A DNA stretch of 32,000 bases, taken from Thauera aromatica K172. GTDB taxonomy: Bacteria > Pseudomonadota > Gammaproteobacteria > Burkholderiales > Rhodocyclaceae. The notes beneath the pieces were generated by a model that had not been told where the DNA came from, ran no database searches, and saw only the letters and a program-made list of their open reading frames with translations. Below, piece by piece: positions 7,501 to 32,000 of the stretch. Made by a program: the position numbers and the translations under genes. Numbering within the stretch: position 1 is the first letter of the stretch; each line of letters begins with the position of its first letter. The stretch spans positions 2,952,041-2,984,040 of the forward strand of contig NZ_CP028339.1 of the NCBI RefSeq assembly GCF_003030465.1. The letters are read 5' to 3'.

Positions 7501-7888
7501 GCGAAAACACCCGCGCCACGCCGTAGGCGTGCAGTTCGCGGATTTCGTCCGGCACGATCACCCCGCCGCCGCCGCCGAACACCTGGATATGGCCACCGCC
7601 GCGGGTCCTGAGCAGATCGATCAGGTACTTGAAGAACTCGACGTGCCCGCCCTGGTAGCTGCTCACCGCGATGCCGTGCACGTCCTCCTGCAGCGCCGCG
7701 CTCACGACCTCCTCGACCGAGCGGTTGTGGCCGAGGTGGATGACCTCCACCCCGCTCGCCTGCAGCAGCCGGCGCACGATGTTGATCGCGGCATCATGGC
7801 CGTCGAACAGCGCGGTCGCGGTGATGAAGCGGACCTTGTTCCTGGGCGTGTACGCCGCAGGCCTGCTTGTGGCGCTCGGATCGGTCAT
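4562..7888 (-). CDS. icmF: Fused isobutyryl-CoA mutase (B12-binding domain + MeaI-type G-protein + mutase barrel)
   Basis: 1108 aa. The N-terminus is a B12-binding domain ([15 protein letters not shown]...[12 protein letters not shown]). The centre has a P-loop [17 protein letters not shown] with an ArgK/MeaB-like region. The C-terminus is a methylmalonyl-CoA-mutase-like substrate barrel ([23 protein letters not shown]...RTNRRF). GGAGG lies 9 nt upstream of the ATG. Length and domain order are typical of IcmF. Confidence 0.9.
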
Positions 7889-10248: not shown

Positions 10249-10270
10249 CACCCTTCCTCCTGAACTGGTC

Positions 10271-10312
10271 CTTTTACGCGCAGCCACCACGGGTCGTATT
10301 GACGTGCGTCAA
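10271..10312 (-). promoter_or_regulatory. Candidate FNR/CRP-family class II promoter for the activator gene (box TTGACGTGCGTCAA + TAAAAG -10)
   Basis: Perfect palindrome TTGAC-N4-GTCAA at 10299-10312. Exactly 22 nt downstream on the minus strand is TAAAAG (10276-10271). That geometry places the box at -41.5. The predicted TSS is near 10264, 16 nt before the ATG. Confidence 0.4.
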
Positions 10313-12514: not shown

Positions 12515-12527
12515 GGGAGTGACTGAC

Positions 12528-13652
12528 ATGGGAAGTATCGTTTCCACCGTAGCCCTGTCCGCGGCCACCGCCGACAGCACTTCGCCGAAGGTCTGCCCGT
12601 TCGAGGCCTGCGGCAAGGACTCGGTCCCGCTGGTGGGCGGCAAGTGCGCGTCCCTGGGCGAACTGATCAACGCCGGCGTACGGGTGCCGCCGGGCTTTGC
12701 CCTGACCACCAGCGGCTATGCCCAGTTCATGCGTGAAGCCGGCATCCAGGCGGACATCGGCGCGCTGCTCGAAGGCCTCGACCACCAGGACATGGACAAG
12801 CTCGAGGAAGCATCGAGGGCGATCCGCGAAATGATCGAATCGCGCCCGATGCCGATCGAGCTCGAAGACCTGATCGCCGAGGCCTACCGCAAGCTGTCGG
12901 TCCGCTGCTATCTGCCCGCGGCGCCGGTGGCGGTGCGTTCGAGCGCGACCGCCGAGGACCTGCCCGGTGCGAGCTTTGCCGGCCAGCAGGATACCTACCT
13001 GTGGATCCGCGGCGTCGATGACCTCATCCACCACGTCCGGCGCTGCATCTCCAGCCTCTACACCGGCCGGGCGATCGCCTACCGGATGAAGATGGGCTTC
13101 CCGCACGAGCAGGTCGCGATCAGCGTCGGCGTCCAGATGATGGCGAACGCCTACACCGCGGGGGTGATGTTCACGATCCATCCGGGCACCGGCGACCGCT
13201 CGGTGATCGTCATCGATTCGAATTTCGGCTTCGGTGAATCCGTGGTGTCGGGCGAAGTCACGCCGGACAACTTCGTCGTCAACAAGGTCACCCTCGACAT
13301 CATCGAGCGCACGATTTCGACGAAGGAGCTGTGCCACACCGTCGATCTGAAGACCCAGAAATCAGTCGCACTTCCGGTCCCTGCCGAGCGCCAGAACATC
13401 CAGTCGATTACCGATGACGAAATCAGCGAACTCGCCTGGGCCGCCAAGAAGATCGAAAAGCATTACGGCCGCCCGATGGACATCGAATGGGCGATCGACA
13501 AGAACCTGCCCGCGGACGGAAACATTTTCATCCTCCAGGCCCGGCCCGAAACGATCTGGAGCAACCGCCAGAAAGCCAGCGCGACGACCGGCAGCACGTC
13601 GGCGATGGATTACATCGTATCGAGCCTGATCACGGGCAAGCGGCTCGGCTAG
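12528..13652 (+). CDS. ppsB: Phenylphosphate synthase subunit B (ATP-binding, PEP synthase N-terminal-like)
   Basis: It has a PPDK_N/ATP-grasp-like domain (VPLVGGKCASLGEL, VRSSATAEDLPGASFAGQQDTYL, IDSNFGFGESVVSGEVTPD, MDIEWAID). I prefer the ATG at 12528 (GAGGGAG 8 nt upstream) to the GTG at 12519. Confidence 0.9.
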   Translation: MGSIVSTVALSAATADSTSPKVCPFEACGKDSVPLVGGKCASLGELINAGVRVPPGFALTTSGYAQFMREAGIQADIGALLEGLDHQDMDKLEEASRAIREMIESRPMPIELEDLIAEAYRKLSVRCYLPAAPVAVRSSATAEDLPGASFAGQQDTYLWIRGVDDLIHHVRRCISSLYTGRAIAYRMKMGFPHEQVAISVGVQMMANAYTAGVMFTIHPGTGDRSVIVIDSNFGFGESVVSGEVTPDNFVVNKVTLDIIERTISTKELCHTVDLKTQKSVALPVPAERQNIQSITDDEISELAWAAKKIEKHYGRPMDIEWAIDKNLPADGNIFILQARPETIWSNRQKASATTGSTSAMDYIVSSLITGKRLG

Positions 13653-13664
13653 GAGGACGAAAAA

Positions 13665-14336
13665 ATGATCGTACGCAACTGGATGCAGACCAATCCGATC
13701 GTGCTCACCGGGGACACCTTGCTGTCCGAAGCGAAGCGGATCTTTTCCGAAGCCAATATCCACGCATTACCGGTCGTCGATGACGGCCGCCTGCGCGGAC
13801 TCATCACCCGCGCCGGCTGCCTGCGGGCCGCGCATGCCGCGCTGCGGACCCAGGACACCGACGAGCTCAACTACTTCTCGAACCGGGTCAAGGTCAAGGA
13901 CATCATGGTCCGCAACCCGGCCACCATCGATGCCGACGACACGATGGAACACTGCCTGCAGGTCGGCCAGGAACACGGCGTCGGCCAATTGCCGGTGATG
14001 GACAAAGGCAATGTCGTCGGAATCATTTCGGCAATCGAAATGTTCTCGCTGGCGGCGCATTTCCTTGGTGCCTGGGAAAAGCGCAGCGGCGTCACCCTGG
14101 CCCCGATCGATCTCAAGCAGGGAACCATGGGCCGCATCATCGACACCGTCGAAGCCGCCGGCGCCGAGGTGCACGCGATCTACCCGATCTCGGCCCATGA
14201 CAGGGAGTCCGCCTCGGCCAGGCGGGAGCGGAAAGTGATCATCCGCTTCCACGCCGCGAACGTCGCGGCAGTCATCGAGGCGCTCGCCCACGCCGGCTAC
14301 GAAGTCATCGAGGCCGTTCAAGCCGCAGCGCATTGA
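13665..14336 (+). CDS. ppsC: Phenylphosphate synthase subunit C (CBS-pair stimulating protein)
   Basis: 223 aa with two CBS motifs (VRNWMQTNPIVL...LPVVDDGRLRGLIT; VKDIMVRNPATID...LPVMDKGNVVGIIS) and an ACT-like tail. It is the third gene of the pps block. AGGAGGA lies upstream. Confidence 0.85.
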   Translation: MIVRNWMQTNPIVLTGDTLLSEAKRIFSEANIHALPVVDDGRLRGLITRAGCLRAAHAALRTQDTDELNYFSNRVKVKDIMVRNPATIDADDTMEHCLQVGQEHGVGQLPVMDKGNVVGIISAIEMFSLAAHFLGAWEKRSGVTLAPIDLKQGTMGRIIDTVEAAGAEVHAIYPISAHDRESASARRERKVIIRFHAANVAAVIEALAHAGYEVIEAVQAAAH

Positions 14337-14398
14337 GCCCAGCCCCACCCATCCTGCCTCACCCCGGTTTCACCCATTTCTGCCAAGGAGCGACACCC

Positions 14399-15817
14399 AT
14401 GGACCTGCGCTACTTCATCAACCAGTGTGCCGAAGCCCACGAACTGAAGAGAATCACCACCGAGGTCGATTGGAATCTGGAGATTTCCCATGTTTCCAAG
14501 CTGACCGAAGAGAAAAAAGGCCCGGCGCTGCTGTTCGAAAGCATCAAGGGCTACGACACGCCGGTGTTCACCGGGGCCTTCGCGACCACCAAGCGCCTCG
14601 CCGTCATGCTCGGCCTGCCGCACAACCTGTCGCTGTGCGAATCCGCCCAGCAATGGATGAAGAAAACGATCACCTCCGAAGGGCTGATCAAGGCGAAGGA
14701 AGTGAAGGACGGCCCGGTGCTGGAAAACGTGCTCAGCGGCGACAAGGTCGATCTCAACATGTTCCCGGTGCCGAAGTTCTTCCCCCTCGACGGCGGGCGC
14801 TACATCGGCACGATGGTATCGGTGGTGCTGCGTGATCCGGAGACGGGCGAGGTCAACCTCGGCACCTACCGCATGCAGATGCTCGACGACAAGCGCTGCG
14901 GGGTGCAGATCCTGCCCGGGAAGCGCGGCGAACGGATCATGAAAAAGTACGCCAAGATGGGCAAAAAGATGCCCGCCGCGGCGATCATCGGCTGCGATCC
15001 GCTGATCTTCATGTCCGGCACGCTGATGCACAAGGGCGCCAGCGACTTCGACATTACCGGCACCGTGCGCGGCCAGCAGGCCGAGTTCCTGATGGCGCCG
15101 CTGACCGGGCTGCCGGTGCCGGCCGGGGCCGAGATCGTGCTCGAAGGCGAGATCGATCCGAACGCCTTCCTGCCCGAAGGCCCGTTCGCCGAATACACCG
15201 GCTACTACACCGACGAACTGCACAAGCCGATCCCGAAACCGGTGCTCGAAGTGCAGCAGATCCTGCACCGCAACAGCCCGATCCTGTGGGCCACCGGCCA
15301 GGGCCGCCCGGTGACCGACGTCCATATGCTGCTCGCCTTCACCCGGACCGCGACCTTGTGGACCGAGCTCGAGCAGATGCGCATTCCCGGCATCCAGTCG
15401 GTGTGCGTGATGCCGGAATCGACCGGGCGCTTCTGGTCGGTGGTGTCGGTCAAGCAGGCCTACCCGGGGCACTCGCGCCAGGTGGCCGACGCGGTGATCG
15501 CCAGCAACACCGGCTCGTACGGCATGAAGGGTGTGATCACGGTCGATGAGGACATCCAGGCCGACGATCTGCAGCGCGTGTTCTGGGCGCTGTCGTGCCG
15601 CTACGACCCGGCGCGCGGCACCGAGCTGATCAAGCGCGGCCGCTCGACGCCGCTCGATCCGGCGCTCGACCCGAACGGCGACAAGCTCACCACGTCGCGG
15701 ATCCTGATGGACGCCTGCATCCCCTACGAGTGGAAGCAGAAGCCGGTCGAAGCGCGCATGGACGAAGAGATGCTGGCGAAGATCCGCGCCCGCTGGCACG
15801 AGTACGGCATCGACTGA
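14399..15817 (+). CDS. ppcB: Phenylphosphate carboxylase UbiD-like subunit (beta, 472 aa)
   Basis: It carries UbiD-family motifs GEVNLGTYRMQ (14855-14872 covers N..R) and EGPFAEYTGYY. The start is taken at the ATG at 14399 (AAGGAG 7 nt upstream), not the track start at 14333. Confidence 0.9.
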   Translation: MDLRYFINQCAEAHELKRITTEVDWNLEISHVSKLTEEKKGPALLFESIKGYDTPVFTGAFATTKRLAVMLGLPHNLSLCESAQQWMKKTITSEGLIKAKEVKDGPVLENVLSGDKVDLNMFPVPKFFPLDGGRYIGTMVSVVLRDPETGEVNLGTYRMQMLDDKRCGVQILPGKRGERIMKKYAKMGKKMPAAAIIGCDPLIFMSGTLMHKGASDFDITGTVRGQQAEFLMAPLTGLPVPAGAEIVLEGEIDPNAFLPEGPFAEYTGYYTDELHKPIPKPVLEVQQILHRNSPILWATGQGRPVTDVHMLLAFTRTATLWTELEQMRIPGIQSVCVMPESTGRFWSVVSVKQAYPGHSRQVADAVIASNTGSYGMKGVITVDEDIQADDLQRVFWALSCRYDPARGTELIKRGRSTPLDPALDPNGDKLTTSRILMDACIPYEWKQKPVEARMDEEMLAKIRARWHEYGID

Positions 15818-15881: not shown

Positions 15882-16391
15882 ATGGAACAGGCGAAGAACA
15901 TCAAGCTGGTGATCCTCGACGTCGATGGCGTGATGACCGACGGGCGCATCGTGATCAATGACGAAGGCATCGAGTCGCGCAACTTCGACATCAAGGACGG
16001 CATGGGCGTGATCGTGCTGCAACTGTGCGGCGTCGAGGTCGCGATCATCACCTCGAAGAAATCCGGCGCGGTGCGCCATCGCGCCGAGGAGCTGAAGATC
16101 AAGCGCTTCCACGAGGGCATCAAGAAGAAGACCGAGCCCTACGCGCAGATGCTCGAGGAGATGAACATCTCCGATGCCGAAGTCTGCTACGTCGGCGACG
16201 ACCTCGTCGATCTGTCGATGATGAAGCGCGTCGGCCTGGCCGTGGCGGTCGGTGACGCCGTGGCCGACGTCAAGGAAGTGGCCGCTTATGTGACGACTGC
16301 GCGCGGCGGGCACGGCGCGGTGCGCGAAGTCGCGGAGCTGATCCTGAAAGCGCAGGGCAAGTGGGACGCGATGCTCTCGAAGATCCATTGA
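15882..16391 (+). CDS. ppcD: Phenylphosphate carboxylase 18-kDa HAD-phosphatase subunit (KdsC-like; delta as I recall the nomenclature)
   Basis: 169 aa. HAD motif I is LVILDVDGVMTDG. It also has ITSKKS and YVGDDLVDL motifs like KDO-8-P phosphatase. It lies between the two UbiD-like subunit genes. The gamma/delta naming is from memory and could be swapped. Confidence 0.85.
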   Translation: MEQAKNIKLVILDVDGVMTDGRIVINDEGIESRNFDIKDGMGVIVLQLCGVEVAIITSKKSGAVRHRAEELKIKRFHEGIKKKTEPYAQMLEEMNISDAEVCYVGDDLVDLSMMKRVGLAVAVGDAVADVKEVAAYVTTARGGHGAVREVAELILKAQGKWDAMLSKIH

Positions 16392-16427
16392 TTCATCCGC
16401 ATGACATCCATCGACAAGGAGATCGAC

Positions 16428-17885
16428 ATGGGAAAGATTTCAGCACCGAAAAACAACCGTGAATTCATCGAGGCATGCGTCAAGTCCGGCGATGCGGTCC
16501 GGATCAGACAGGAAGTGGACTGGGACAACGAGGCCGGCGCCATCGTGCGCCGCGCCTGCGAGCTCGCCGAAGCCGCCCCGTTCATGGAGAACATCAAGGA
16601 CTACCCCGGCTTCAGCTACTTCGGCGCGCCGCTGTCGACCTACCGCCGCATGGCGATCTCGCTCGGCATGGACCCGGCATCGACCTTGCCGCAGATCGGC
16701 GCCGAGTACCTCAAACGTACCAACAGCGAGCCCGTGGCGCCGGTGATCGTCGACAAACGGGACGCCCCGTGCAAGGAGAACATCCTGCTCGGCGCCGACG
16801 TCGATCTGACCAAGCTGCCGGTACCGCTGGTCCATGACGGCGACGGCGGCCGCTACGTCGGCACCTGGCACGCGGTGATCACCAAGCACCCGGTGCGCGG
16901 CGACGTGAACTGGGGCATGTACCGGCAGATGATGTGGGACGGCCGCACGATGTCGGGCGCCGTGTTCCCGTTCTCGGATCTGGGCAAGGCGCTCACCGAG
17001 TACTACCTGCCGCGCGGCGAGGGCTGCCCGTTCGCGACCGCGATCGGCCTGTCGCCGCTCGCCGCGATGGCCGCCTGCGCGCCCTCTCCGATCCCCGAGC
17101 CCGAGCTCACCGGCATGCTCGCCGGCGAGCCGGTGCGCCTGGTGAAGTGCGAGACCAACGACCTCGAAGTCCCGGCCGATGCCGAGATCATCATCGAGGG
17201 CGTGATCCTGCCCGACTACAAGGTCGAGGAAGGCCCGTTCGGCGAATACACCGGCTACCGCACCAGCCCGCGCGACTTCCGCGTCACCTTCCGCGTCGAT
17301 GCGATCACCTATCGCAACAACGCGACGATGACGATCTCGAACATGGGCGTGCCGCAGGACGAGGGCCAGCTGCTGCGCTCGTTCTCGCTCGGGCTCGAAC
17401 TCGAGAAGCTGCTGAAGAGCCAGGGTATCCCGGTGACCGGCGTGTACATGCACCCGCGCTCGACCCACCACATGATGATCGTCGGCGTGAAGCCGACCTA
17501 CGCCGGCATCGCGATGCAGATCGCGCAGCTCGCGTTCGGCTCCAAGCTCGGGCCGTGGTTCCACATGGTGATGGTGGTCGACGACCAGACCGACATCTTC
17601 AACTGGGACGAGGTCTATCACGCGTTCTGCACGCGCTGCAATCCGGAGCGCGGCATCCACGTGTTCAAGAACACCACCGGCACCGCCCTCTATCCGCACG
17701 CCACCCCGCACGACCGCAAGTACTCGATCGGCTCGCAGGTGCTGTTCGATTGCCTGTGGCCGGTCGATTGGGACAAGACCAACGACGTGCCGACGCTCGT
17801 CAGCTTCAAGAACGTCTATCCGAAGGACATCCAGGAAAAGGTCACGAACAACTGGACCGACTACGGCTTCAAGCCGGTGAAATAA
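16428..17885 (+). CDS. ppcA: Phenylphosphate carboxylase UbiD-like subunit (alpha, 485 aa)
   Basis: It carries UbiD-family motifs GDVNWGMYRQM (N..R at 16908-16925) and EGPFGEYTGYR. I prefer the ATG at 16428 (AAGGAG 7 nt upstream) to the one at 16401. Confidence 0.9.
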   Translation: MGKISAPKNNREFIEACVKSGDAVRIRQEVDWDNEAGAIVRRACELAEAAPFMENIKDYPGFSYFGAPLSTYRRMAISLGMDPASTLPQIGAEYLKRTNSEPVAPVIVDKRDAPCKENILLGADVDLTKLPVPLVHDGDGGRYVGTWHAVITKHPVRGDVNWGMYRQMMWDGRTMSGAVFPFSDLGKALTEYYLPRGEGCPFATAIGLSPLAAMAACAPSPIPEPELTGMLAGEPVRLVKCETNDLEVPADAEIIIEGVILPDYKVEEGPFGEYTGYRTSPRDFRVTFRVDAITYRNNATMTISNMGVPQDEGQLLRSFSLGLELEKLLKSQGIPVTGVYMHPRSTHHMMIVGVKPTYAGIAMQIAQLAFGSKLGPWFHMVMVVDDQTDIFNWDEVYHAFCTRCNPERGIHVFKNTTGTALYPHATPHDRKYSIGSQVLFDCLWPVDWDKTNDVPTLVSFKNVYPKDIQEKVTNNWTDYGFKPVK

Positions 17886-17896
17886 GGAGACGCAAC

Positions 17897-18151
17897 ATGA
17901 ACCAGTGGGAAGTATTCGTCATGGACCCGGCGGAACTGCCGGAAGGCAAGCAGCTCGAGCTGAGCGTGCGCACCCTCAACCCCGGGCTGAAGAAATACAC
18001 CTATCAGCGCGTCAGGGCTGAAGTGTCACCCGCGCTCGACAAGTTCCCCGACCAGCTCCAGGTCCGGCTCGGGCGCGGCCAGCTGAGCCCCCAGCGCTTC
18101 TCGATCCGCATCATCGAGACCGTCCAGCGCATGCCGGCCAAGTACCTGTAG
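17897..18151 (+). CDS. ppcC: Phenylphosphate carboxylase 10-kDa subunit (gamma as I recall)
   Basis: Only the last 84 aa of the 16934..18151 track ORF are used: MNQWEVFVMDPAELPEGK...RMPAKYL. AAGGAG lies 8 nt upstream, 11 nt after the ppcA stop. Size and position match the small subunit. It has no recognisable domain. Confidence 0.75.
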   Translation: MNQWEVFVMDPAELPEGKQLELSVRTLNPGLKKYTYQRVRAEVSPALDKFPDQLQVRLGRGQLSPQRFSIRIIETVQRMPAKYL

Positions 18152-18162
18152 TGACGGCGGAC

Positions 18163-18192
18163 GGCGCCGGGCAACTGCCTCTGCCCGGCGCC
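18163..18192 (+). terminator. Strong hairpin between the ppc genes and the ubiD/ubiX sub-cluster (possible partial terminator/attenuator)
   Basis: Perfect 11-bp stem GGCGCCGGGCA/TGCCCGGCGCC with an 8-nt loop, 12 nt after the ppcC stop. A T-tract (CCTTTTG) occurs only ~17 nt further on, so it is not a canonical intrinsic terminator. Confidence 0.35.
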
Positions 18193-18271
18193 GGAAGCGT
18201 GACCGCCGCCTTTTGTCCGCCCGCGGCAGCGCCGCGGCCGGCACTCAACCCGCTAAAGCATTGGGGGAACG

Positions 18272-19615
18272 ATGGCCTATTCCGATCTGCGTGCCTTCCT
18301 CGCCGACCTCGGTGACGACTTGCTGCGCATCCGCGATGAGTTCGACCCGCGCTTCGAAGCGGCAGCCTTGCTCCGCACCCTCCCCGCCGAAGGGCCGGCC
18401 GTGCTGTTCGAGAACGTCCGCGCCTACCCCGGCGCACGCATCGCCGGCAACCTGATCGCCAGCCGCAGCCGCCTGGCGCGCGCACTCGGCACCACCGCCG
18501 ACGCGCTGCCGCGGACCTGGCTGGAGCGCAAGGAGCACGGCATTGCACCGATCCAGGCGCGGGACGCGGCCCCGGTCAAGGAAGTGATCCACCGCCATCC
18601 GGACGATCTGCTGTCGCTGCTGCCGATCCTGACCCACCACGAAAAGGATGCGGCCCCCTTCATCACCACCGGCGTGGTGTTGTGCACCGACCCCGAGACC
18701 GGCCGGCGCGGCATGGGCATCCACCGCATGATGGTCAAGGGCGGGCGCCGGCTCGGCATCCTGCTCGCCAATCCGCCGATTCCGCATTTCCTCGCCAAGG
18801 CCGAAGCGGCCGGCAAGCCGCTCGATGTCGCCATCGCGCTCGGTCTCGAACCCGCCACCCTGCTGTCGTCGGTGGTCAAGGTCGGCCCGCGGGTGCCCGA
18901 CAAGATGGCCGCTGCCGGCGCCCTGCGTGGCGAACCGGTCGAGCTGGTGCGCGCCGAAACGGTGGATGTGGACATCCCGGCGCGCGCCGAAATCGTCATC
19001 GAAGGCCGGATTCTGCCGGGCGTGCGCGAACTCGAGGGCCCGTTCGGGGAGAACACCGGGCACTATTTTTCCAACGTCAGCCCGGTCATCGAGATCAGCG
19101 CCGTCACCCATCGCGACAACTTCATCTACCCGGGCCTGTGCCCATGGTCGCCCGAGGTCGATGCGCTGCTGTCGCTGGCGGCCGGTGCCGAATTGCTCGG
19201 CCAGTTGCAGGGGCTGATCGACGGCGTCGTCGATCTGGAGATGGCCGGCGGCACCAGCGGCTTTTCCGTGGTTGTCGCAGTCCATCGGACCACTGCGGCC
19301 GACGTCAGACGGCTGGTCATGCTCGCGCTCAATCTCGACCGCCGCCTGAAGACGATCACCGTCGTCGACGACGACGTCGACATCCGCGACCCGCGCGAAG
19401 TCGCCTGGGCCATGGCTACCCGCTACCAGCCCGCCCGGGACACGGTCGTGATCCACGGCTGCGAAGCCTATGTCATCGATCCTTCGGCGACCGGGGACGG
19501 CACATCGAAAGTCGGGTTCATCGCCACCCGTGCCAGCGGCGCGGACTCGGACCGCATCACCCTGCCGCCGGCAGCGCTCGCGAAGGCGCGCGCCATCATC
19601 GCCAGACTGCATTGA
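18272..19615 (+). CDS. Third UbiD-family (de)carboxylase paralogue, 447 aa, divergent
   Basis: It has EGPFGENTGHY and the overall UbiD layout. The N-x-G-x-Y-R motif reads GRRGMGIHRMM (18701-18733). It is shorter than PpcA/PpcB. Confidence 0.85.
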   Translation: MAYSDLRAFLADLGDDLLRIRDEFDPRFEAAALLRTLPAEGPAVLFENVRAYPGARIAGNLIASRSRLARALGTTADALPRTWLERKEHGIAPIQARDAAPVKEVIHRHPDDLLSLLPILTHHEKDAAPFITTGVVLCTDPETGRRGMGIHRMMVKGGRRLGILLANPPIPHFLAKAEAAGKPLDVAIALGLEPATLLSSVVKVGPRVPDKMAAAGALRGEPVELVRAETVDVDIPARAEIVIEGRILPGVRELEGPFGENTGHYFSNVSPVIEISAVTHRDNFIYPGLCPWSPEVDALLSLAAGAELLGQLQGLIDGVVDLEMAGGTSGFSVVVAVHRTTAADVRRLVMLALNLDRRLKTITVVDDDVDIRDPREVAWAMATRYQPARDTVVIHGCEAYVIDPSATGDGTSKVGFIATRASGADSDRITLPPAALAKARAIIARLH

Positions 19616-19629
19616 ACAGGGAGCAAGCC

Positions 19630-20214
19630 ATGAGAATCGTCGTCGGAATGTCCGGTGCCAGCGGTGCGATCTACGGCATCCGGATCCTCGAGGCACTACA
19701 GCGCATCGGTGTCGAAACCGACCTGGTGATGTCGGATTCGGCCAAGCGGACCATCGCATACGAAACGGACTATTCGATCAGCGACTTGAAGGGACTCGCG
19801 ACCTGCGTCCATGACATCAATGATGTCGGGGCGTCGATCGCCAGCGGCTCGTTCCGCCATGCCGGCATGATCATCGCGCCCTGTTCGATCAAGACCCTGT
19901 CCGCAGTCGCCAACTCGTTCAACACGAATCTGTTGATCCGCGCCGCCGACGTCGCGTTGAAGGAGCGGCGCAAGCTCGTGCTGATGCTGCGCGAGACGCC
20001 GCTGCACCTGGGCCACCTGCGCCTGATGACCCAGGCCACGGAGAACGGCGCGGTTCTCCTCCCTCCCCTGCCCGCGTTCTACCACCGCCCCAAGACGCTC
20101 GACGACATCATCAACCAGTCGGTGACGAAAGTGCTCGACCAGTTCGATCTCGACGTCGATCTCTTCGGGCGGTGGACGGGCAACGAAGAACGCGAACTGG
20201 CGAAATCCCGATAG
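19630..20214 (+). CDS. ubiX: Flavin prenyltransferase UbiX/Pad1 family
   Basis: Only the last 194 aa of the 18682..20214 track ORF are used: MRIVVGMSGASGAIYGIRILE..., MIIAPCSIKTLSAVANS, LMLRETPLHLGHLRLM. These are hallmark UbiX motifs. GGGAG lies upstream, 14 nt after the ubiD-like stop. Confidence 0.9.
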   Translation: MRIVVGMSGASGAIYGIRILEALQRIGVETDLVMSDSAKRTIAYETDYSISDLKGLATCVHDINDVGASIASGSFRHAGMIIAPCSIKTLSAVANSFNTNLLIRAADVALKERRKLVLMLRETPLHLGHLRLMTQATENGAVLLPPLPAFYHRPKTLDDIINQSVTKVLDQFDLDVDLFGRWTGNEERELAKSR

Positions 20215-20224
20215 GACGCTTCCG

Positions 20225-20656
20225 ATGCCACCGATCGCCCTTCCCCTGTCACTCGAAGGCGTCGTCTGCACGGGACTCGGTGCAGGCGCGCAGTTCACCA
20301 CCCTCGACTGGGTCGTCGATGAATGCCGGGAAAAGCTCGGCTTCATCCCCTGGCCCGGCACCTTCAACGTGAGGACGCAGGGCGCGCTTGCGGGCGTGGA
20401 CCGCACCCGCCTCCTGCGCTCGGGATACAGCATCCGCATCCGGCCGGCGCCCGGCTACTGTGCCGCGGAATGCCTCGTGGTCAACATCGCGGGGCGGATC
20501 TCCGGCGCGGTGCTATTCCCAGAGGTGCCCGGCTACCCGGACGGCCAGCTCGAAATCATCGCTCCGGTGCCGGTACGAAGAACCCTCGGCCTCAATGACG
20601 GCGACCGGGTCAACCTCTCCATCGGCATCAGCACCTCCCTTTTCTGCCGGGCCTGA
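20225..20656 (+). CDS. Archaeal-type (CTP-dependent, MJ0056/DUF120-like) riboflavin kinase homologue
   Basis: 143 aa. EGVVCTGLGAGAQF, KLGFIPWPGTFNV and ISGAVLFPEVPGYPDGQLEIIAPVPVRRTLGLNDGDRVNLSI align by eye with my recollection of MJ0056 ([69 protein letters not shown]). Confidence 0.75.
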   Translation: MPPIALPLSLEGVVCTGLGAGAQFTTLDWVVDECREKLGFIPWPGTFNVRTQGALAGVDRTRLLRSGYSIRIRPAPGYCAAECLVVNIAGRISGAVLFPEVPGYPDGQLEIIAPVPVRRTLGLNDGDRVNLSIGISTSLFCRA

Positions 20657-20694
20657 ACAGTCGGGAGCCGGCAAACGTCAGCAAGGAGATTCAC

Positions 20695-21243
20695 ATGGCA
20701 CCGAAGTTCTGCCCGCAATGCGGCACCGCCCTGGTCCTGGCGACGATCCATGGGCGCGAACGTGAAACCTGTCCGGCCTGTGGCGAAACCTTTTTCCACA
20801 AGCCCGCGCCCGTCGTGCTGGCGGTGATCGAGCACGCCGGGCAACTCGTGCTGATCCGCCGCAAGCTCGATCCGCTCGCCGGCTACTGGGCACCGCCGGG
20901 CGGCTACGTCGAACGCGGCGAATCGCTCGAGGAGGCGGTCGTACGCGAGGCGCGCGAGGAAAGCGGACTCGAGGTCGCCGTCGATGAACTGATCGGCGTG
21001 TATTCGCAGGCCGACGTGCGCGCGGTGATCCTCGCCTACCGCGCGCACTCGATCGGCGGCGAACCGGTCGCCGGCGACGACGCCGGCGAGATCTGCCTCG
21101 TCGCCCCGGGCCAGCTGCCGGTGCAGCGCCCGCCGCAGAGCGGCATACCGATCGAACACTGGTTTTTCAGCGTAGTGGAGGAAGTCACCGATCCATGGAA
21201 GTGGGGGCGCCGCAACAGCGCCAAGAAAATGATGAGGAGATAG
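20695..21243 (+). CDS. Nudix hydrolase with N-terminal zinc ribbon (MutT-like)
   Basis: 182 aa with a CPQCG...CPACG ribbon. The Nudix box is a perfect GX5EX7REUXEEXGU match: GYVERGESLEEAVVREAREESGL (20902-20970). AAGGAG lies upstream. Confidence 0.88.
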   Translation: MAPKFCPQCGTALVLATIHGRERETCPACGETFFHKPAPVVLAVIEHAGQLVLIRRKLDPLAGYWAPPGGYVERGESLEEAVVREAREESGLEVAVDELIGVYSQADVRAVILAYRAHSIGGEPVAGDDAGEICLVAPGQLPVQRPPQSGIPIEHWFFSVVEEVTDPWKWGRRNSAKKMMRR

Positions 21244-21246
21244 AAC

Positions 21247-21720
21247 GTGAATATCATCGATACACCCCCGATCACCCCCGAGATGCCGCCAAACCTGCTG
21301 GATTACCTGCGCGGCGGCGGACCTGCCCTGCTGCTGACGACGGGCACCGACGGATACCCGAGCTCGGCCTACACATGGGCAATCGCCCTCGACGGCACGC
21401 ACCTGCGCTTCGGCGCGGACGAGGGCGGCTCCGGCTACGCCAACCTGGAGCGCACCGGACAGGCCGCGATACACATCATCGGCCCGAATGACCTCGCCTT
21501 CCTCGTCAAGGGAACGGCACGTCTTCTCAAGGCGCACATCGACACTGCCTCGCCCGCGCGCATGGCGCTGTACGAACTCGAAGTGATCGGAGCCCGCGAT
21601 CAGTCCTTCCCCGGCGTCACGGCCAAGCCCTTCACCTATGAATGGCCGGCGGCGCAGCGCGCGGCGCTGACGAAGATGGAACAGTCGGTGTTTACCGAAA
21701 TGCGCGAATTCGCCCAGTGA
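21247..21720 (+). CDS. PNPOx-like FMN-binding split-barrel protein
   Basis: 157 aa with a GTG start 3 nt after the Nudix stop and GAGGAG 7 nt upstream. PALLLTTGTDGYPSSAYTWAIALDGTHLRFGADEGGSGYANLERTGQAAIHIIG is typical of the pyridoxamine-5'-phosphate-oxidase-related fold. Confidence 0.7.
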   Translation: MNIIDTPPITPEMPPNLLDYLRGGGPALLLTTGTDGYPSSAYTWAIALDGTHLRFGADEGGSGYANLERTGQAAIHIIGPNDLAFLVKGTARLLKAHIDTASPARMALYELEVIGARDQSFPGVTAKPFTYEWPAAQRAALTKMEQSVFTEMREFAQ

Positions 21721-21771
21721 CAAAGGCCGCACGCTCCTGGACCCCCCATTCAAACCTTCAGGAATTTTCTC

Positions 21772-23073
21772 ATGTCGTATTTCGACCAGACCACCGAAAC
21801 CCTTCCCCGCGAACGCCTGGCCGCCCTGCAGTTCGACAAGCTGCAGGCGATGATGAACGAGCTGTGGGGCAGGAACCGCTTCTACACCAACAAGTGGAAA
21901 GCCGCCGGCGTCGAACCGGGTGACATCCGGACGCTCGACGATCTCGCCCGCCTGCCGCTGACGACCAAGTCGGAGCTGATGGAAGATCAGGCCACGAACG
22001 GACCGTTCGGTTCGAACCTGACCTATCCGCTCGAAGCCTATGTCCGCCTGCACCAGACTTCCGGCACCACCGGCGTGCCGCTGAAGGTTTTCGACACCGC
22101 CGAATCATGGGACTGGTTCGGACGCTGCTGGGCGCATGTCCTGGCCGGCGCCGGCGTGACCGCTTCCGACCGGGTCTTCCTGGCCTTTTCATTCGGACCT
22201 TTCATCGGCTTCTGGTCGGCGCTGGAAGGCGCGCGCAAGCTCGGCGCCGTCCTGATTCCCGGCGGCGGGCGCGACTCCCTGCAGCGCCTCGAACTGATGC
22301 GCGACACCGGTGCCAGCGTGCTGTGCTGCACTCCGACGTATGCGCTTCGGCTCGCCGAAGTGGCGCGTGAAGTCGGTTTCGACCTGAGCTCGATCCCGAT
22401 GCGCGCCACGGTGCATGCCGGTGAGCCCGGCGCAAGCATTCCCGCAACCAAGCACCGCATCGAGGACGCATGGTCGTCGAAATGCTTCGACCACGCCGGG
22501 GCGTCGGAAATCGGCGCCTACTCCTTCGAGTGCGAACATCAGCCCGGCGGCACCCACCTGATCGAAAGCGAGTTCATCGCCGAGGTCATCGACCCGGCCA
22601 CGGGCAAGGCCGTCCCTCCCGGACAGCGCGGTGAACTGGTAATCACCAACCTCGGGCGCTGGGGCTTTCCGGTGCTGCGCTACCGCACCGGCGACCTGGT
22701 CGAAGTGAATCACGCCCCGTGCGACTGCGGCCGCGGCTTCCTGCGCTTCGAAGGCGGGATTCTCGGCCGTGCCGACGACATGATTACCGTGCGCGGGGTC
22801 AACGTTTACCCCTCCGGCGTCGAGAACATCATCCGCAAGTTCACCGAAGTCGATGAGTTCCGCATCAAGGTCAGCCGCGTGCGCCAGATGGATGAGATGG
22901 ATGTGGAAATCGAGCTGTGCGAAGGCGCCGATCCGGAAGTCGTGCATGCCATCGCCGAAAAGCTGGACACCATGCTCGCCTTCCGCCCGCGCGTCCATCA
23001 CGTCGGGCGCAACGTGCTGCCCCGCTTCGACATGAAGGCGCGGCGCTTCCACGTGAACCGCGAAGCTTCGTAA
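21772..23073 (+). CDS. PaaK-type adenylate-forming ligase (phenylacetate-CoA ligase / coenzyme F390 synthetase family)
   Basis: 433 aa. The N-terminal region (LPRERLAALQFDKLQAMMNELWGRNRFY...LDDLARLPLTTKSEL), the LHQTSGTTGVPLKV adenylation motif and the RTGDL..., ITVRGVNVYPSGVE C-terminal domain are all typical of PaaK. Confidence 0.8.
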   Translation: MSYFDQTTETLPRERLAALQFDKLQAMMNELWGRNRFYTNKWKAAGVEPGDIRTLDDLARLPLTTKSELMEDQATNGPFGSNLTYPLEAYVRLHQTSGTTGVPLKVFDTAESWDWFGRCWAHVLAGAGVTASDRVFLAFSFGPFIGFWSALEGARKLGAVLIPGGGRDSLQRLELMRDTGASVLCCTPTYALRLAEVAREVGFDLSSIPMRATVHAGEPGASIPATKHRIEDAWSSKCFDHAGASEIGAYSFECEHQPGGTHLIESEFIAEVIDPATGKAVPPGQRGELVITNLGRWGFPVLRYRTGDLVEVNHAPCDCGRGFLRFEGGILGRADDMITVRGVNVYPSGVENIIRKFTEVDEFRIKVSRVRQMDEMDVEIELCEGADPEVVHAIAEKLDTMLAFRPRVHHVGRNVLPRFDMKARRFHVNREAS

Positions 23074-23186
23074 CCCCTCCGGGCCATGGCAGGGAGCAGC
23101 CCCCGCATCCCGCCATAGCCCGAACCGCGCGGGGCAAACCACCAAACCAGAACAACGAAACGCACAACGCAGTGAGGAGGAAACAA

Positions 23187-24116
23187 ATGGGGATCAAGCA
23201 GATTGCAGTCGCAGCAATGCTTTCAGGACTCGCTGCCGCAAGCGCCAGCGCAAAGGAAGGCGGCGACCAGTATCCGAACGGAGGCGAAAACTGGCTGGTC
23301 GGCGCAATGCCGCCCCCCGGTGACTACTTCCTGAACTACGCCGGTTATTACGATGGAGAACTGCGCGACGGCAGCGGCGACAAGGTCCCTGGCGCTTCGG
23401 TGACAGCCTGGTTCGACGCGCTGCGCTACGTCAAGGTCACCGACAAGCAGATCCTCGGCGGAAACTGGGCGGTGCACATGATCGTGCCCATCGTGCACCA
23501 GAAGCTGAGTCTCGGCGGCGGCAGCAAGACCGTGACCGGTCTGGGCGACATCGTGTTTTCCCCTCTGGCCATCGCCTGGCATGCCGGCAACTGGCACTGG
23601 GTCGCCGTGCTCGACATCTATGCGCCGACCGGGAAGTACAAGTCGGGCGAACCGCGCAAGAGCATCGGTGCCAATTACTGGAGCATCGAGCCGGTCTTCG
23701 CCGTCACTTGGCTTTCGCCGCGGGGCTGGGAAGTGACGGGCAAGTTCATGTACAACTTCAAGGCGGAGAACAAGGATTTCCGGCCCGCCCCCGGTGCGCC
23801 GAAGATGGATTACGACTCCGGCGACGAATTCCACATGGACTTTCTCGTCGGCAAGCGCTTCGGCCCCTGGGGCGTCGGGGTCTCGGGCTATTACGTGAAA
23901 CAGACCACGGACGACAAGCTGGACGGAAAGTCGATTTCATCGGCTCTCGGGCCGTGGTCGACCGGACGCAGGGGAGAAGCTTTCGCTGCCGGGCCGAGCG
24001 TCAGTTACACGACCAAGACAGGCACCCAGTTCATTGCGCAATGGCAGCACGAAATCGAAGCCGACAATCGCTTCCGTGGCGACAAGGCGTGGTTCAAACT
24101 GGTGACTTCGTTCTGA
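23187..24116 (+). CDS. Outer-membrane beta-barrel channel, phenol-degradation MetA-pathway family (PF13557-like)
   Basis: Only the last 309 aa of the 22917..24116 track ORF are used. The signal peptide is [22 protein letters not shown]|KEGG and GAGGAGG lies 7 nt upstream. It is Gly/Tyr/Trp-rich with an alternating beta-strand pattern, and the C-terminus ends in Phe (WFKLVTSF). Confidence 0.75.
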
Positions 24117-24145
24117 TCGGCGACTCAGACTTCTCGAGAGCGCCG

Positions 24146-24186
24146 CCTGGCATGACACCCCACCGCGTTTGGGGCGCCATGCCAGG
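24146..24186 (+). terminator. Compound stem-loop after the OMP gene (possible terminator, no U-tract)
   Basis: CCTGGCATG (24146-24154) pairs with CATGCCAGG (24178-24186). An inner CCCC/GGGG stem lies in the loop. It starts 30 nt after the stop codon. Confidence 0.3.
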
Positions 24187-24288
24187 CCTGGCGCCGTAGC
24201 CGGCCGATCGCCGCCTCTCCGGCATTGCCCGGACACTCGGTCCAGCGCAAGCACCCGACGGGCAAGGCTGAATCTCAATGCTCCACTC

Positions 24289-24324
24289 GCTTGTGCTTAT
24301 AATTATGAATTCTTTATCACAAGC
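24289..24324 (+). promoter_or_regulatory. AT-rich candidate promoter/operator: TATAAT (24298-24303) inside the inverted repeat GCTTGTG/CACAAGC
   Basis: This is the only strongly AT-rich patch in this intergenic region. It lies 34 nt upstream of the VOC gene ATG. The -35 element is weak. Confidence 0.25.
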
Positions 24325-25849: not shown

Positions 25850-27259
25850 TCAGGCCGCTGCGAGCCGGTCCTCGCGGATCGCTTCGTACTCGTCCTGCCA
25901 GAACCACTTTTCCTCGCCGAAGGCGGGAACGAGCTGGTCGAGCCAGGTCGCCTTGTCGTCGAACTTGGCGAAGAACGGGCGCTGCACCCAGTCGGGGTTG
26001 CGCCCCTGGATGAAGCGCAGGACGAAGACTTTTTCGCCGGCGATCTCGGCAACGCCCTGGATCTCGACCTTGCCCGGACTCGCGCTCATGCTCGGGCCGC
26101 GCGCGGTGCGGGCCAGGCCCGAGACCTGCTGCATGGCCTCGCGGTAGATTTCCCAGGCACGCACCAGCGGCACTTCGAAGTAGTTGCGCGCACCGGTGTC
26201 GCGCTCGACGAACATGTAGTAGGGGACCAGGCCGAGCTTCACTTCCAGCTTCCACAGCTTCGCCCATACCGCGGGGTCGTCGTTGATGTGCGCGACCAGC
26301 GGCCCCTGGGCACGGATCACCGCGCCGGTGCCGCGGATGCGGCGAATCGCGGCCTGCGCGGCCTCGGTGTCGAGTTCCTTCCAGTGGTTGTAGTGCGCCA
26401 TCAGGGCGACGTGCTTGCCGGCCTCGACGAGCTGGGTCAGCAGGCGGATCAGGTCGTCGGCATCGTCGGCGCCGAGGAAGCGGTGCGGCCAGAAGGTGAG
26501 CGCCTTGGAGCCGATGCGGATGGTCTGGACGTGGTCGAACTCGGGCTGCAGCAGGGGCTCAAGAAAGTCGCGCAGGTGGCGCGTCTTCATCACCATCGGG
26601 TCACCACCGGTGACCAGCAGGTCGGTGACTTCGGGGTGGCGGCGCAGGTAATTGTGCAGCTCGATGGCTTCGGACGAGCAGATGCGCAGCTCCTTGTCAC
26701 CGACGAACTGCGCCCAGCGGAAGCAGAAGCTGCAGTAACTGTGGCAAGTCTGCCCCTGGGTGGGGAAGAACAACACCGTCTCGCGGTACTTGTGCTGCAT
26801 GCCTTCGAGACGCTTGCCGTGCTCGTCGCGCGGCATGTTCATTTCCATCTGGTCGGCCGGGTGCGGGTTCAGCGCATGGCGCACTTCACCCACCGCCCGC
26901 TCCAGTTCGGCCTTGTCGGCGCCGCCGCGGATCAGGCCGGCGATGCGCTCGTAGTGCTCGGGCGCAAGCATCCCGCGCTGCGGGAAAGTGAGCTGGAAGA
27001 TCGGGTCGTCGGGAACCTTGCTCCAGTCGATCAGTTCGTCGATGACGTACTGGTTGACGCGGAAGGGCAGCACCGAAGACACCACTTTCATCTCGAAGCG
27101 CTGCTCGGACGACAGCCTGGCCAGCGGGGCAATGCGGTCGAGGTCGCGCTGGGTATACACCTTGAACGGGACGGGATCGAAGAAATCGACACCGGCGGGG
27201 GGGATCTGCGCGAGGGGCTGGATGTGATGGGGCTGGAGAGCCTGCACTTGAGCGCTCAT
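25850..27259 (-). CDS. KamA-family radical SAM protein (lysine-2,3-aminomutase-like)
   Basis: 469 aa from the ATG at 27259 (GGAGGA 6 nt upstream). The track extension to 27574 is Arg/Pro-rich junk. It has a CX3CX2C cluster CHSYCSFCFRW, a LAM-like N-terminus (LPFRVNQYVIDELIDW...DDPIFQLTFPQ) and LLVTGGDPMV. Confidence 0.8.
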   Translation of the reverse strand: MSAQVQALQPHHIQPLAQIPPAGVDFFDPVPFKVYTQRDLDRIAPLARLSSEQRFEMKVVSSVLPFRVNQYVIDELIDWSKVPDDPIFQLTFPQRGMLAPEHYERIAGLIRGGADKAELERAVGEVRHALNPHPADQMEMNMPRDEHGKRLEGMQHKYRETVLFFPTQGQTCHSYCSFCFRWAQFVGDKELRICSSEAIELHNYLRRHPEVTDLLVTGGDPMVMKTRHLRDFLEPLLQPEFDHVQTIRIGSKALTFWPHRFLGADDADDLIRLLTQLVEAGKHVALMAHYNHWKELDTEAAQAAIRRIRGTGAVIRAQGPLVAHINDDPAVWAKLWKLEVKLGLVPYYMFVERDTGARNYFEVPLVRAWEIYREAMQQVSGLARTARGPSMSASPGKVEIQGVAEIAGEKVFVLRFIQGRNPDWVQRPFFAKFDDKATWLDQLVPAFGEEKWFWQDEYEAIREDRLAAA

Positions 27260-27469
27260 GGGACGTCCTCCTGGTGTGGTCTTGTGGGTTTTGCAGGGGC
27301 GCGCGGTTACGGCGCCCGCAAGCCTGCGTCCAGACACGGAAAAACCACGTCTGGCAGTCGGCAGGGAAAACGGAGCAGACCCGGAATGATCGTGAAAACG
27401 GCTGGATGCCAGCCTCGGGCCCTGTTTATTCATGCTCCCGCGAGTGCGGCAAGCAGATTGCTGATTTGA

Positions 27470-27498
27470 ATCATATTCCACGAAATACTTTTGTGCAA
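27470..27498 (-). promoter_or_regulatory. Candidate sigma70 promoter TTGCAC-N17-TATGAT for the KamA-like gene
   Basis: The minus strand has -35 TTGCAC (27498-27493), a 17-nt spacer and -10 TATGAT (27475-27470). This predicts a ~200-nt leader. Confidence 0.45.
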
Positions 27499-27610
27499 AT
27501 ATGACACTCCGTGCGGAGTGAAGTTCCACGGCGCCGGGCGGCCTCCGAAACAGCCCGGCCGCCGCGGCCGGCATTCGATCGAGCGGGAGCGCCCTGCCCC
27601 ACGCGCATCG

Positions 27611-29723: not shown

Positions 29724-31256
<1,533 letters not shown>

Positions 31257-31311: not shown

Positions 31312-32000
31312 TCAAGCCTGGACGTAGCCGAGCAGGCGCAGCGCGGCGGCCGAAGGCGTGGTCGTGCCCTCCTCCACCGCGCGGGCGAACCCGGGCAATG
31401 CGTGCTTCACCTGCGGATGGGTGCGGAAGCGGCTGCGCAGCCCCGCATCGATCAGTTCCCACATCCAGGCCAGGGCCTGGTGGCGGCGTCTGGCGTCGAA
31501 CTCGCCGGAGGCGGTGAGCGTCCGGCGGTAGTCGCTCACCGCCTGCCAGAATTCGGCGATGCCTTCCTTCTTCAGCGCCGACAGCGTCAGCACCGGCACC
31601 GTCCAGTTCGGGCTGGCCGGGCGCAGCATGTGGAGCGCGGTCTTGATCTGGGCCTTCGCCCGCATCGCCGCCGCCGGATCGAGGTCGGCCTTGTTGATGA
31701 CGATCAGGTCGGCAAGCTCCATGATCCCTTTCTTGATCGCCTGCAGCTCATCGCCGGCGTTGGGCAGCTGGAGCAGGCAGAAGAGGTCGGTCATGCCCGC
31801 CACCGCAGTCTCGCTCTGGCCGACGCCGACGGTCTCGACGATGAGCACGTCGAAACCGGCGGCCTCGCACACCAGCATCGTCTCGCGCGTTTTCTCTGCC
31901 ACCCCGCCGAGCGAACCGGCCGACGGGCTGGGACGGATGAACGCGGCCGGATTCTGCGAGAGCCGTTCCATGCGCGTCTTGTCGCCGAGGATCGAGCCGC
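31312..32000 (-). CDS. meaB: MeaB/ArgK methylmalonyl-CoA-mutase-associated GTPase; partial, N-terminus beyond the right window edge
   Basis: The frame stays open upstream of the track Met: ...[14 protein letters not shown]..., then [13 protein letters not shown] and INKADL (NKxD). The P-loop part lies outside the window. Confidence 0.85.

Follow-up and report, generated by a model that had tools for sequence, protein, structure and literature searches.

A RibK/DUF120-type riboflavin kinase homologue beside ubiX in the anaerobic phenol cluster of Thauera aromatica

The cytidine triphosphate (CTP)-dependent riboflavin kinases of the RibK type, represented by archaeal MJ0056 (EC 2.7.1.161) and by the kinase domain of RbkR (PDB 5TRD/3CTA), are described as an archaeal enzyme class set against the kinases of Bacteria and eukaryotes (10.1101/2021.04.15.440061), and RibK orthologues have been stated to be absent from Bacteria (PMC5397151). 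Here we report on a homologue of these enzymes in a betaproteobacterium, an open reading frame (ORF) at positions 20225-20656 of a stretch of 32,000 nucleotides (hereafter, the window) from the genome of Thauera aromatica K172 (contig NZ_CP028339.1), which is the anaerobic phenol (pps/ppc) cluster of this organism. The ORF follows the gene of the flavin prenyltransferase UbiX. Its product belongs to the RibK/DUF120 (cradle-loop barrel) family and is probably a monofunctional riboflavin kinase with an accessory function, namely the provision of flavin mononucleotide (FMN) to UbiX in the synthesis of prenylated FMN (prFMN).

The likeness to the archaeal enzymes extends over the full-length domain and its cradle-loop barrel fold, and includes the Gly-rich phosphate loop, the GT(L/F)N motif, the catalytic Glu, most of the flavin contacts and an LR-type motif near the base-binding helix. 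Unlike archaeal RibK and RbkR, the Thauera protein is bacterial, about 26% identical to the solved structures and below the NCBIfam equivalog cutoffs, belongs to a subfamily with a Trp29-Val30 pair instead of the archaeal Tyr115, and is without the winged helix-turn-helix (wHTH) domain; its gene would be an accessory one, placed by ubiX in a catabolic or cofactor operon, whereas the archaeal loci are without UbiX linkage. In the plant AtFMN/FHy-type proteins a HAD-type FMN hydrolase is fused to a riboflavin kinase, and many bacterial DUF120 proteins are likewise fused or adjacent to HAD proteins, but the plant kinase is of another family, and the Thauera protein is single-domain, UbiX-linked and has no HAD partner. 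With the bacterial bifunctional RibF (kinase/FMN adenylyltransferase) and the eukaryotic RFK the protein would have in common the conversion of riboflavin to FMN, as well as a convergent T-x-N phosphate/metal motif, which is GTLN in the DUF120 kinases and PTAN in RibF/RFK (10.1101/2021.04.15.440061); the DUF120 sequence is, however, unrelated to theirs and has no FMN adenylyltransferase domain, so that the FMN would not be passed on to flavin adenine dinucleotide (FAD).

As regards its neighbour, UbiX, the locus resembles the known prFMN systems (E. coli UbiX/UbiD, Pad1/Fdc1 and VdcBCD/LpdBCD), in which UbiX is found by UbiD-family (de)carboxylases together with accessory small proteins. The UbiX-UbiD systems described have not been reported with a riboflavin kinase, a Nudix hydrolase or a PNPOx-like protein of their own, whereas the Thauera locus and those related to it appear to encode also the supply of FMN and of dimethylallyl phosphate (DMAP) or dimethylallyl diphosphate (DMAPP). 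A UbiD-UbiX-Nudix transcript has been recorded in a metatranscriptome, where the Nudix protein was read as a hydroxylase candidate (PMC5852087). Our literature search, outside which many journals lie, found no work pairing riboflavin kinase, DUF120 or MJ0056 with UbiX, UbiD, prFMN or phenylphosphate carboxylase. The domain annotation, the family and its reaction are already known, whereas a conserved subfamily in bacteria, with its place in UbiX operons, appears not to have been described.

Family membership, fold and ligand-binding residues

The gene is one ORF on the forward strand, from ATG to TGA, of 143 codons (143 amino acids). By profile score it is a member of Pfam family PF01982 (CTP-dep_RFKase/DUF120), residues 14-133 covering positions 1-121 of the 121-position model with 95.6 bits against a cutoff of 25 (E 2.7e-27), and it stands outside the curated set of RibK orthologues. 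This full-length match confirms the original prediction of a DUF120-kinase homologue in a betaproteobacterium, which had been made from three motif blocks, all of them present: G12-x-V-x-x-G17-L-G19-A-G21-A-Q-F24, L38-G-F-I-P-W-P-G45-T46-F-N48 and L109-E110-I-I-A-P...R118...L-N-D-G126-D-R-V. A phmmer search of the PDB returned as the only sequence relatives MJ0056 (2.6e-8) and the T. acidophilum RbkR kinase domain (8e-8). An AlphaFold2 model computed from a 61-sequence alignment (mean predicted local distance difference test, pLDDT, 88; predicted template modelling score, pTM, 0.83) was compared with the PDB by Foldseek, and the only significant matches were the MJ0056/RbkR entries 5trd, 2vbu, 2vbv, 2vbs, 2oyn and 2p3m (E 1.5e-10 to 2e-8; template modelling, TM, score 0.69-0.79), the next match having an E of at least 0.1. 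In the same comparison human RFK (1nb0, 1q9s) gave no significant fold match (E ~0.1-0.3, TM ~0.33-0.35), and neither Pfam nor NCBIfam matched a RibF-type flavokinase domain with its PTAN motif in the ORF. On the strength of the PF01982 match, the PDB relatives and the fold matches together, the motif blocks are real and homologous. An identical (100%) T. aromatica protein (P0001) is named "DUF120 domain-containing protein" at NCBI and "Riboflavin kinase" in UniRef.

The ligand contacts described for taRbkR and mjRibK (PMC5397151) were transferred to the Thauera protein through the HMMER alignment, the index of chain 3CTA being the numbering of that paper plus 2. The nucleotide-phosphate site, SGxGEGR/YxGTLN/xxLR, reads T16-G-L-G-A-G-A22, W43-P-G-T-F-N48 and V115-P-V-R118 in Thauera, with all its Gly, Thr, Asn and Arg positions kept and Glu, Arg and Leu side chains replaced (A20, A22, F47, V117). 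Residue by residue, Gly102, Gly104 and Gly106 of the CTP phosphate loop of taRbkR correspond to G17, G19 and G21, and in the remainder of the CTP site Thr131, Asn133 and Arg203 correspond to T46, N48 and R118, Leu132 and Leu202 being changed conservatively to F47 and V117. Five of the six FMN contacts are kept or conservatively replaced: Tyr109 by F24, Phe165 by Y78, Pro185 by P99, Tyr190 by Y104, and Glu195, which is also the proposed catalytic base, by E110. G12, G45, T46, N48 and E110 are invariant in the 61 of 61 aligned sequences, while T46, N48, P99 and E110 are found in 34/34 UbiX-linked bacterial sequences, and E110 is kept in all groups compared.

The sixth flavin contact lies at Val30. 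By alignment column counts, the Trp29-Val30 pair is present in 31 of the 34 UbiX-linked bacterial sequences, in 27 of the 32 remaining bacterial ones and in 43 of the 57 from Bathyarchaeia, Trp29 having been demanded by the search motif itself (see below), and the euryarchaeal references all have Tyr at the Val30 position. In these alignments the pair is a subfamily trait, common to bacterial and Bathyarchaeia sequences. An old transfer between the domains, with later spread among anaerobic degraders of aromatic compounds, would fit the subfamily that both share. In a neighbour-joining (NJ) tree (131 sequences, 132 columns), 58 bacterial and 0 archaeal sequences make up one group, to which Bathyarchaeia are adjacent and outside which the euryarchaeal references fall, the bootstrap values of the deep nodes being <=37%. 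There is no sign of a recent transfer into Thauera, an idea rejected on a GC content (0.674) and a GC content at third codon positions (GC3, 0.833) like those of the neighbouring genes (GC3 0.82-0.92), and the gene is syntenic throughout the Rhodocyclales. Horizontal acquisition, one of the proposals of the original prediction, is in this way narrowed down: no trace of a recent or Thauera-specific event is seen, while a connection of ancient date with the Bathyarchaeia-type subfamily would be plausible.

Linkage to UbiX and other genomic contexts

An exhaustive HMMER search yielded 905 clusters (50% identity) at E <=1e-3, 294 of them at E <=1e-10. A repeat-driven false positive of this search, a cadherin/Ig-repeat protein of 4178 amino acids with 16 matched stretches (P0053), was discarded. 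The bacterial members belong to Pseudomonadota, Desulfobacterota, Chloroflexota, Bacillota, Binatota, Acidobacteriota, Methylomirabilota and others; named ones in the profile search are from Sulfuritalea, Rhodocyclaceae, Aromatoleum buckelii, Chloroflexi and Thermodesulfobacteriota, and Bathyarchaeia appear there too. One genome per GTDB species was then scanned for W-x8-L-G-F-x-P-x-x-G-T-[FL]-N by means of a degenerate DNA motif, which has 1 match in the window and 0 in 100 shuffles, and neighbouring genes were identified by tblastn with the Thauera cluster proteins. The scan gave at least 120 loci, and all linkage counts that follow are among the matches listed. About half of the 120 species genomes listed are bacterial, and with 905 clusters in the family the premise of the original prediction, in which the DUF120 kinase is the archaeal solution, overstates its rarity in bacteria.

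In 30 of the 58 bacterial loci with a DUF120 match, UbiX is encoded within the same 8-kb block, as compared with 0 of 60 archaeal loci, almost all from Bathyarchaeia, that have UbiX or UbiD in the block. By our own estimate, a gene present in roughly one copy per genome of 3-5 Mb would fall into the same 8-kb block by chance in about 0.2-0.8% of cases. The two genes are co-oriented in 30/30 linked loci, and the gap between high-scoring segment pairs is below 250 nt in 27 of them. Some 17 of the 30 loci are betaproteobacterial (mainly Rhodocyclales, with Rubrivivax) and hence not mutually independent; the others are from Syntrophorhabdus/Syntrophorhabdales, Syntrophobacterales, other deltaproteobacterial metagenome-assembled genomes (MAGs), Thermincola, Chloroflexota, Binatia and one alphaproteobacterium. 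The linkage spans at least nine lineages. When all loci are considered, metagenome contigs included, the order is UbiX-DUF120 in 27 and DUF120-UbiX in 10. At three loci (L007, L009 and L012) the UbiX and DUF120 genes overlap by 4-26 nt, which suggests translational coupling.

Contigs whose DUF120 homologues are 40-55% identical to that of Thauera show in their gene tables the same arrangement as the Thauera cluster. A metagenome contig (L007) carries ppcB, the HAD gene, ppcA, the gamma subunit gene, UbiD, UbiX, DUF120 and pps, and three others (L012-L014) carry complete ppsABC and ppc sets with UbiD, UbiX, DUF120, Nudix, a 151-amino-acid protein and the ligase; Sulfuritalea (L009) has UbiD, UbiX, DUF120, Nudix and a 153-amino-acid protein, and in Chloroflexi (L010/L011) UbiD and DUF120 are followed at some distance by PNPOx, with pps nearby. 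Aromatoleum buckelii has at least three DUF120 paralogues, all in aromatic-degradation clusters: one in a ppc cluster with the ligase and without UbiX (L008, 9001-9408), one beside Nudix (L008, 18294-end), and one (L028, ~2477), the three settings being a ppc cluster, a Nudix neighbourhood and a run of UbiD, UbiX, DUF120, Nudix and ligase.

A different arrangement is found in L004 (7580-10797) and L005, where DUF120 and UbiX are followed, in this order, by a type-2 isopentenyl diphosphate isomerase (IDI-2; TIGR02151 411 bits, cutoff 281) and two PNPOx-like genes. Modules of this type, which adjoin XdhC-like genes, occur also in L053, L057, L069 and L079, and a relative of the Thauera PNPOx-like protein is encoded at 10315-10794 of L004, in a module of the Binatia/delta type. 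The IDI-2 module, together with an IDI-2-DUF120 fusion protein, ties the kinase to the supply of the prenyl donor in a setting without connection to the phenol genes. Fusions of DUF120 with Nudix (P0159), PNPOx (P0058, P0100) and IDI-2 (P0120) involve the same families as the neighbours in the UbiX-linked loci; further partners are HAD hydrolases (many), an MFS transporter, a MarR-type wHTH domain, a low-molecular-weight (LMW) phosphatase and a glyoxalase-fold domain. UbiX-DUF120 fusion proteins were also considered and rejected, the homologues of 330-390 amino acids being HAD, MarR, Nudix, PNPOx, IDI-2, glyoxalase, LMWPc or MFS fusions.

The phenol operon and the remaining genes of the window

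The genes with profile matches around the kinase gene are collected in the table. The immediate neighbourhood of ubiX, named in the original prediction, is confirmed by the UbiX profile matches and by a spacing of 10 nt. All genes of the run that begins with the UbiD-like gene and ends with the ligase are co-directional, with intergenic gaps of 8 (UbiD-like/UbiX), 10 (UbiX/DUF120), 38 (DUF120/Nudix), 3 (Nudix/PNPOx-like) and 51 nt (PNPOx-like/ligase). No promoter-like sites were detected in 17800-24300, terminator-like sites in the same interval showed no excess over shuffles, and Rfam models, those of FMN riboswitches included, matched nothing in the window; given the short gaps and these three results, the run looks like one transcription unit.

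Table 1. Genes of the pps/ppc cluster and of the adjoining UbiX run, with positions in the window.
Gene or product	Position	Strand	Profile matches and remarks
XylR/DmpR-type sigma-54 activator	8500-10290	-	PF06505, PF02830, PF00158, PF02954; divergent from the pps/ppc operon
ppsA (phenylphosphate synthase)	10676-12514	+	ppsABC: phosphoenolpyruvate (PEP)-synthase-like and CBS-domain matches
ppsB	12519-13652	+	as for ppsA (ppsABC)
ppsC	13665-14336	+	as for ppsA (ppsABC)
ppcB (phenylphosphate carboxylase, UbiD family)	14333-15817	+	TIGR02724 1134 bits
HAD-like subunit of phenylphosphate carboxylase	15882-16391	+	HAD domains
ppcA (UbiD family)	16401-17885	+	TIGR02723 1183 bits
gamma subunit of phenylphosphate carboxylase	17897-18151	+	PF09662 3.7e-49
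third UbiD-family paralogue	18272-19615	+	TIGR00148 303 bits (cutoff 245); below the PpcA, PpcB and VdcC cutoffs
UbiX flavin prenyltransferase	19624-20214	+	NF004685 256 bits (cutoff 188), TIGR00421 245 bits, PF02441 6.6e-43
RibK/DUF120-type kinase homologue	20225-20656	+	PF01982 E 2.7e-27
Nudix hydrolase, N-terminal NudC-like zinc ribbon	20695-21243	+	PF00293 6.6e-17, PF14803 6.2e-6
PNPOx-like split-barrel flavin-binding protein (PRK06733-like)	21247-21720	+	PF01243 1.5e-6; NF005232 4.9e-7, below cutoff
PaaK-like aryl-CoA ligase, last enzyme gene of the run	21772-23073	+	PF14535, PF00501; below the PaaK equivalog cutoffs
Phenol_MetA_deg outer-membrane channel	23187-24116	+	PF13557 5.3e-66; start placed at a signal-peptide-like Met (inferred)

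The UbiD-family subunits PpcA and PpcB are the presumed consumers of prFMN, and the third UbiD paralogue, which in related loci always stands directly upstream of UbiX, is presumably another client. The Nudix gene is kept after DUF120 in the Rhodocyclales loci, and its product, whose closest PDB structures are uncharacterised or generic, is a candidate for making either DMAP out of DMAPP or FMN out of FAD. For the PNPOx-like protein no sequence relative was found in the PDB; orthologues 53-72% identical to it are encoded beside DUF120 in other loci, and in Rhodocyclales it recurs by the UbiX-DUF120 pair. It is a candidate for FMN reduction or handling, or for a prFMN maturation suited to anaerobes. 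The PaaK-like ligase is likewise kept in related loci. Breinig et al. in 2000 reportedly noted in the Thauera cluster a MutT-like ORF along with several that matched nothing in the databases.

Apparently unrelated genes flank the cluster at 4562-7888 (-), 27710-29701 (-), 29724-31256 (-) and 31312-31971 (-), and encode an IcmF-like B12 mutase, in which B12-binding, MeaB and mutase parts are fused, the alpha and beta subunits of propionyl-CoA carboxylase, and a MeaB GTPase. Long ORFs at 37-1383, 1814-2908 and 25850-27574 (-) have no Pfam or NCBIfam match; at the GC content of the window (66%), long ORFs often arise spuriously opposite a gene of the other strand, and some of the unmatched ORFs may not be genes.

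Proposed role and alternative explanations

UbiX requires reduced FMN and dimethylallyl phosphate (e.g. PMC6541611), and apart from the UbiX reaction itself we infer the chemistry of all the steps outlined here. The DUF120 kinase would phosphorylate riboflavin to FMN, with CTP, by analogy, as the likely donor, and the resulting local supply of FMN would be spared from the drain to FAD, unlike that of the bifunctional RibF. The Nudix hydrolase would convert DMAPP to DMAP, a reaction that NudB, NudF, NudI and NudJ perform for prFMN synthesis in E. coli (PMC12359138), or possibly, given its NudC-like architecture, FAD to FMN; in other lineages IDI-2 would make DMAPP in place of the Nudix step. 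UbiX would prenylate reduced FMN with DMAP to give prFMN, the PNPOx-like flavoprotein may reduce or handle the flavin, and PpcA, PpcB and the third paralogue, abundant proteins of the UbiD family, would receive the cofactor. The DUF120 gene would be co-transcribed with ubiX in the phenol-induced pps/ppc operon. Of the two options left by the original prediction, a kinase dedicated to feeding UbiX or one with a changed substrate, the former is favoured by the contrast between bacterial (30/58) and archaeal (0/60) linkage and by the retention of the flavin and catalytic residues, and the latter gains little from the Val30 difference, which is shared with Bathyarchaeia.

A number of observations weigh against a riboflavin kinase in the service of UbiX. 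The protein remains below the cutoffs of the NCBIfam equivalogs NF040694 (ribK_Meth; 52.2 vs 168 bits) and NF010762 (wHTH/riboflavin kinase; 69.1 vs 279 bits), and the literature searched contained no enzymology of any bacterial DUF120 member. In the phosphate loop the side chains of Glu105 and Arg107 are replaced by Ala20 and Ala22 (the loop contacts are reported to be made by backbone amides; PMC5397151), and in the flavin site the archaeal FMN contact Tyr115 is replaced by Val30, adjacent to Trp29, which is the sole non-conservative change there. The cell presumably has RibF, and there is no evident reason for extra FMN. Moreover, DUF120 evolves faster than any other gene of the cluster: its rate of nonsynonymous substitution (dN) is 6-8 times that of UbiX, and identity between Thauera and Azoarcus sp. 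Aa7 is lowest for DUF120, at 56%, as compared with 73% for the UbiD-like protein, 82% for Nudix, 85% for the ligase, 91% for UbiX and 94% for PpcA/PpcB. On these figures the constraint on DUF120 is weak, although purifying selection is present, and it therefore fits an accessory function better than an essential one. Finally, UbiX is absent nearby in 28 of the 58 bacterial loci, and 15 of these 28, mostly from Desulfobacterales, have a HAD hydrolase as partner, often with a UbiE-like methyltransferase upstream. With two UbiX-containing loci in which a HAD partner is also found (L079, L125), the HAD-linked loci amount to 17 in all (among them L035, L047, L050, L071, L072, L094, L117, L118 and L125), and HAD fusions are P0042, P0047, P0057, P0065, P0087 and P0094. 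Since so many loci are without UbiX, and 15 of them are HAD-paired, the supply of UbiX is not the sole role of the family in bacteria but one of at least two uses.

Some of the same observations would suit a protein acting on a modified flavin, which phosphorylates, or merely binds and hands over, reduced riboflavin, a dephosphorylated prenyl-flavin (as salvage), or FMN or prFMNH2 as a carrier or chaperone for UbiX/UbiD. A carrier would have its analogue in the prFMNH2 chaperone LpdD, dedicated prFMN chaperones being known (PMC10865409), and the replacement of Tyr115 by Val30 beside a near-invariant Trp29, the fast evolution of the gene and its tight coupling to UbiX are in line with such a role, as is the presence of F47 for Leu132 in 15 of 34 UbiX-linked sequences, as against a single one of the 32 other bacterial sequences and none of the 56 archaeal ones. 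We nevertheless regard it as rather unlikely. Bathyarchaeia have the Trp29-Val30 pair too, without nearby UbiX or UbiD and presumably in housekeeping kinases, so that the Val30 change alone is no argument for a new substrate; and the phosphate loop, T46, N48 and E110, which a pure binder would not need, are invariant in the UbiX-linked members, which argues for catalysis on a riboflavin-like substrate. Decidedly less probable is a kinase for the other substrate of UbiX, which would phosphorylate prenol (dimethylallyl alcohol) to DMAP and no flavin at all. The source of DMAP is unsettled in most bacteria, and in E. coli it can be formed through phosphorylation of prenol by ThiM or by Nudix enzymes from DMAPP (PMC12359138); DUF120 also co-occurs and is fused with IDI-2 and Nudix, which are enzymes of the prenyl branch. 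Against a prenol kinase stand the five of six flavin-contact positions that are kept or conservatively replaced (F24, Y78, P99, Y104, E110) and the fusions with an MFS transporter, MarR-type (RbkR-like) and HAD domains, which suit the metabolism of riboflavin and FMN.

That the protein is a housekeeping riboflavin kinase replacing the kinase domain of RibF, its proximity to ubiX being incidental, would agree with the housekeeping role of the family in Archaea (PMC5397151). We consider it very improbable in view of the position of the gene inside a substrate-induced catabolic operon, the recurrence of UbiX linkage in at least nine lineages and in two gene orders, the three or more copies of A. 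buckelii, all in aromatic-degradation clusters, and a constraint weaker than that of an essential gene. To our knowledge RibF is, moreover, near-universal in Proteobacteria. There is, lastly, next to no likelihood of a decaying or non-functional remnant that is carried along in the operon, as could be supposed from the low identity between Thauera and Aromatoleum, the lowest in the cluster, and from a ratio of nonsynonymous to synonymous substitution (dN/dS) of 0.37-0.61 in this comparison, in which dS is near saturation. When close orthologues are compared, namely those of Azoarcus sp. Aa7, Aromatoleum toluolicum and an Aromatoleum MAG, dN/dS amounts to 0.12-0.14, on which value a pseudogene is rejected; the frame is intact, all the invariant residues of the family are present, the position of the gene is kept across phyla, and the fold is predicted with confidence.

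The accessory riboflavin kinase feeding UbiX is thus retained as the probable reading. The published absence of RibK-type kinases from Bacteria (PMC5397151) is corrected, in that a broad bacterial subfamily exists in two recurrent contexts, one UbiX-linked and the other HAD-linked. The operon itself appears to be self-supplying: FMN would come from its riboflavin kinase and the prenyl donor from a Nudix hydrolase or IDI-2, and UbiX and a PNPOx-like flavoprotein are encoded with them. A bolder proposal, which we put forward tentatively and think doubtful, is that DUF120, UbiX, Nudix or IDI-2 and the PNPOx-like protein form a self-contained prFMN factory of anaerobes, in which the RibK-type protein would go beyond bulk synthesis of FMN and may channel it directly into UbiX or act on reduced or prenylated flavin, and the PNPOx-like partner would provide reduction or an oxygen-independent maturation. 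The oxygen-independent maturation of prFMN in strict anaerobes is still unexplained. Anaerobes have UbiD-family carboxylases for phenylphosphate, naphthalene, benzene and phthaloyl-CoA, and the supply and maturation of prFMN make it difficult to prepare these enzymes in an active state; if the kinase and its neighbours have the functions proposed here, co-expression of these small genes would be a route to active UbiD-family enzymes and to the study of oxygen-free prFMN synthesis.

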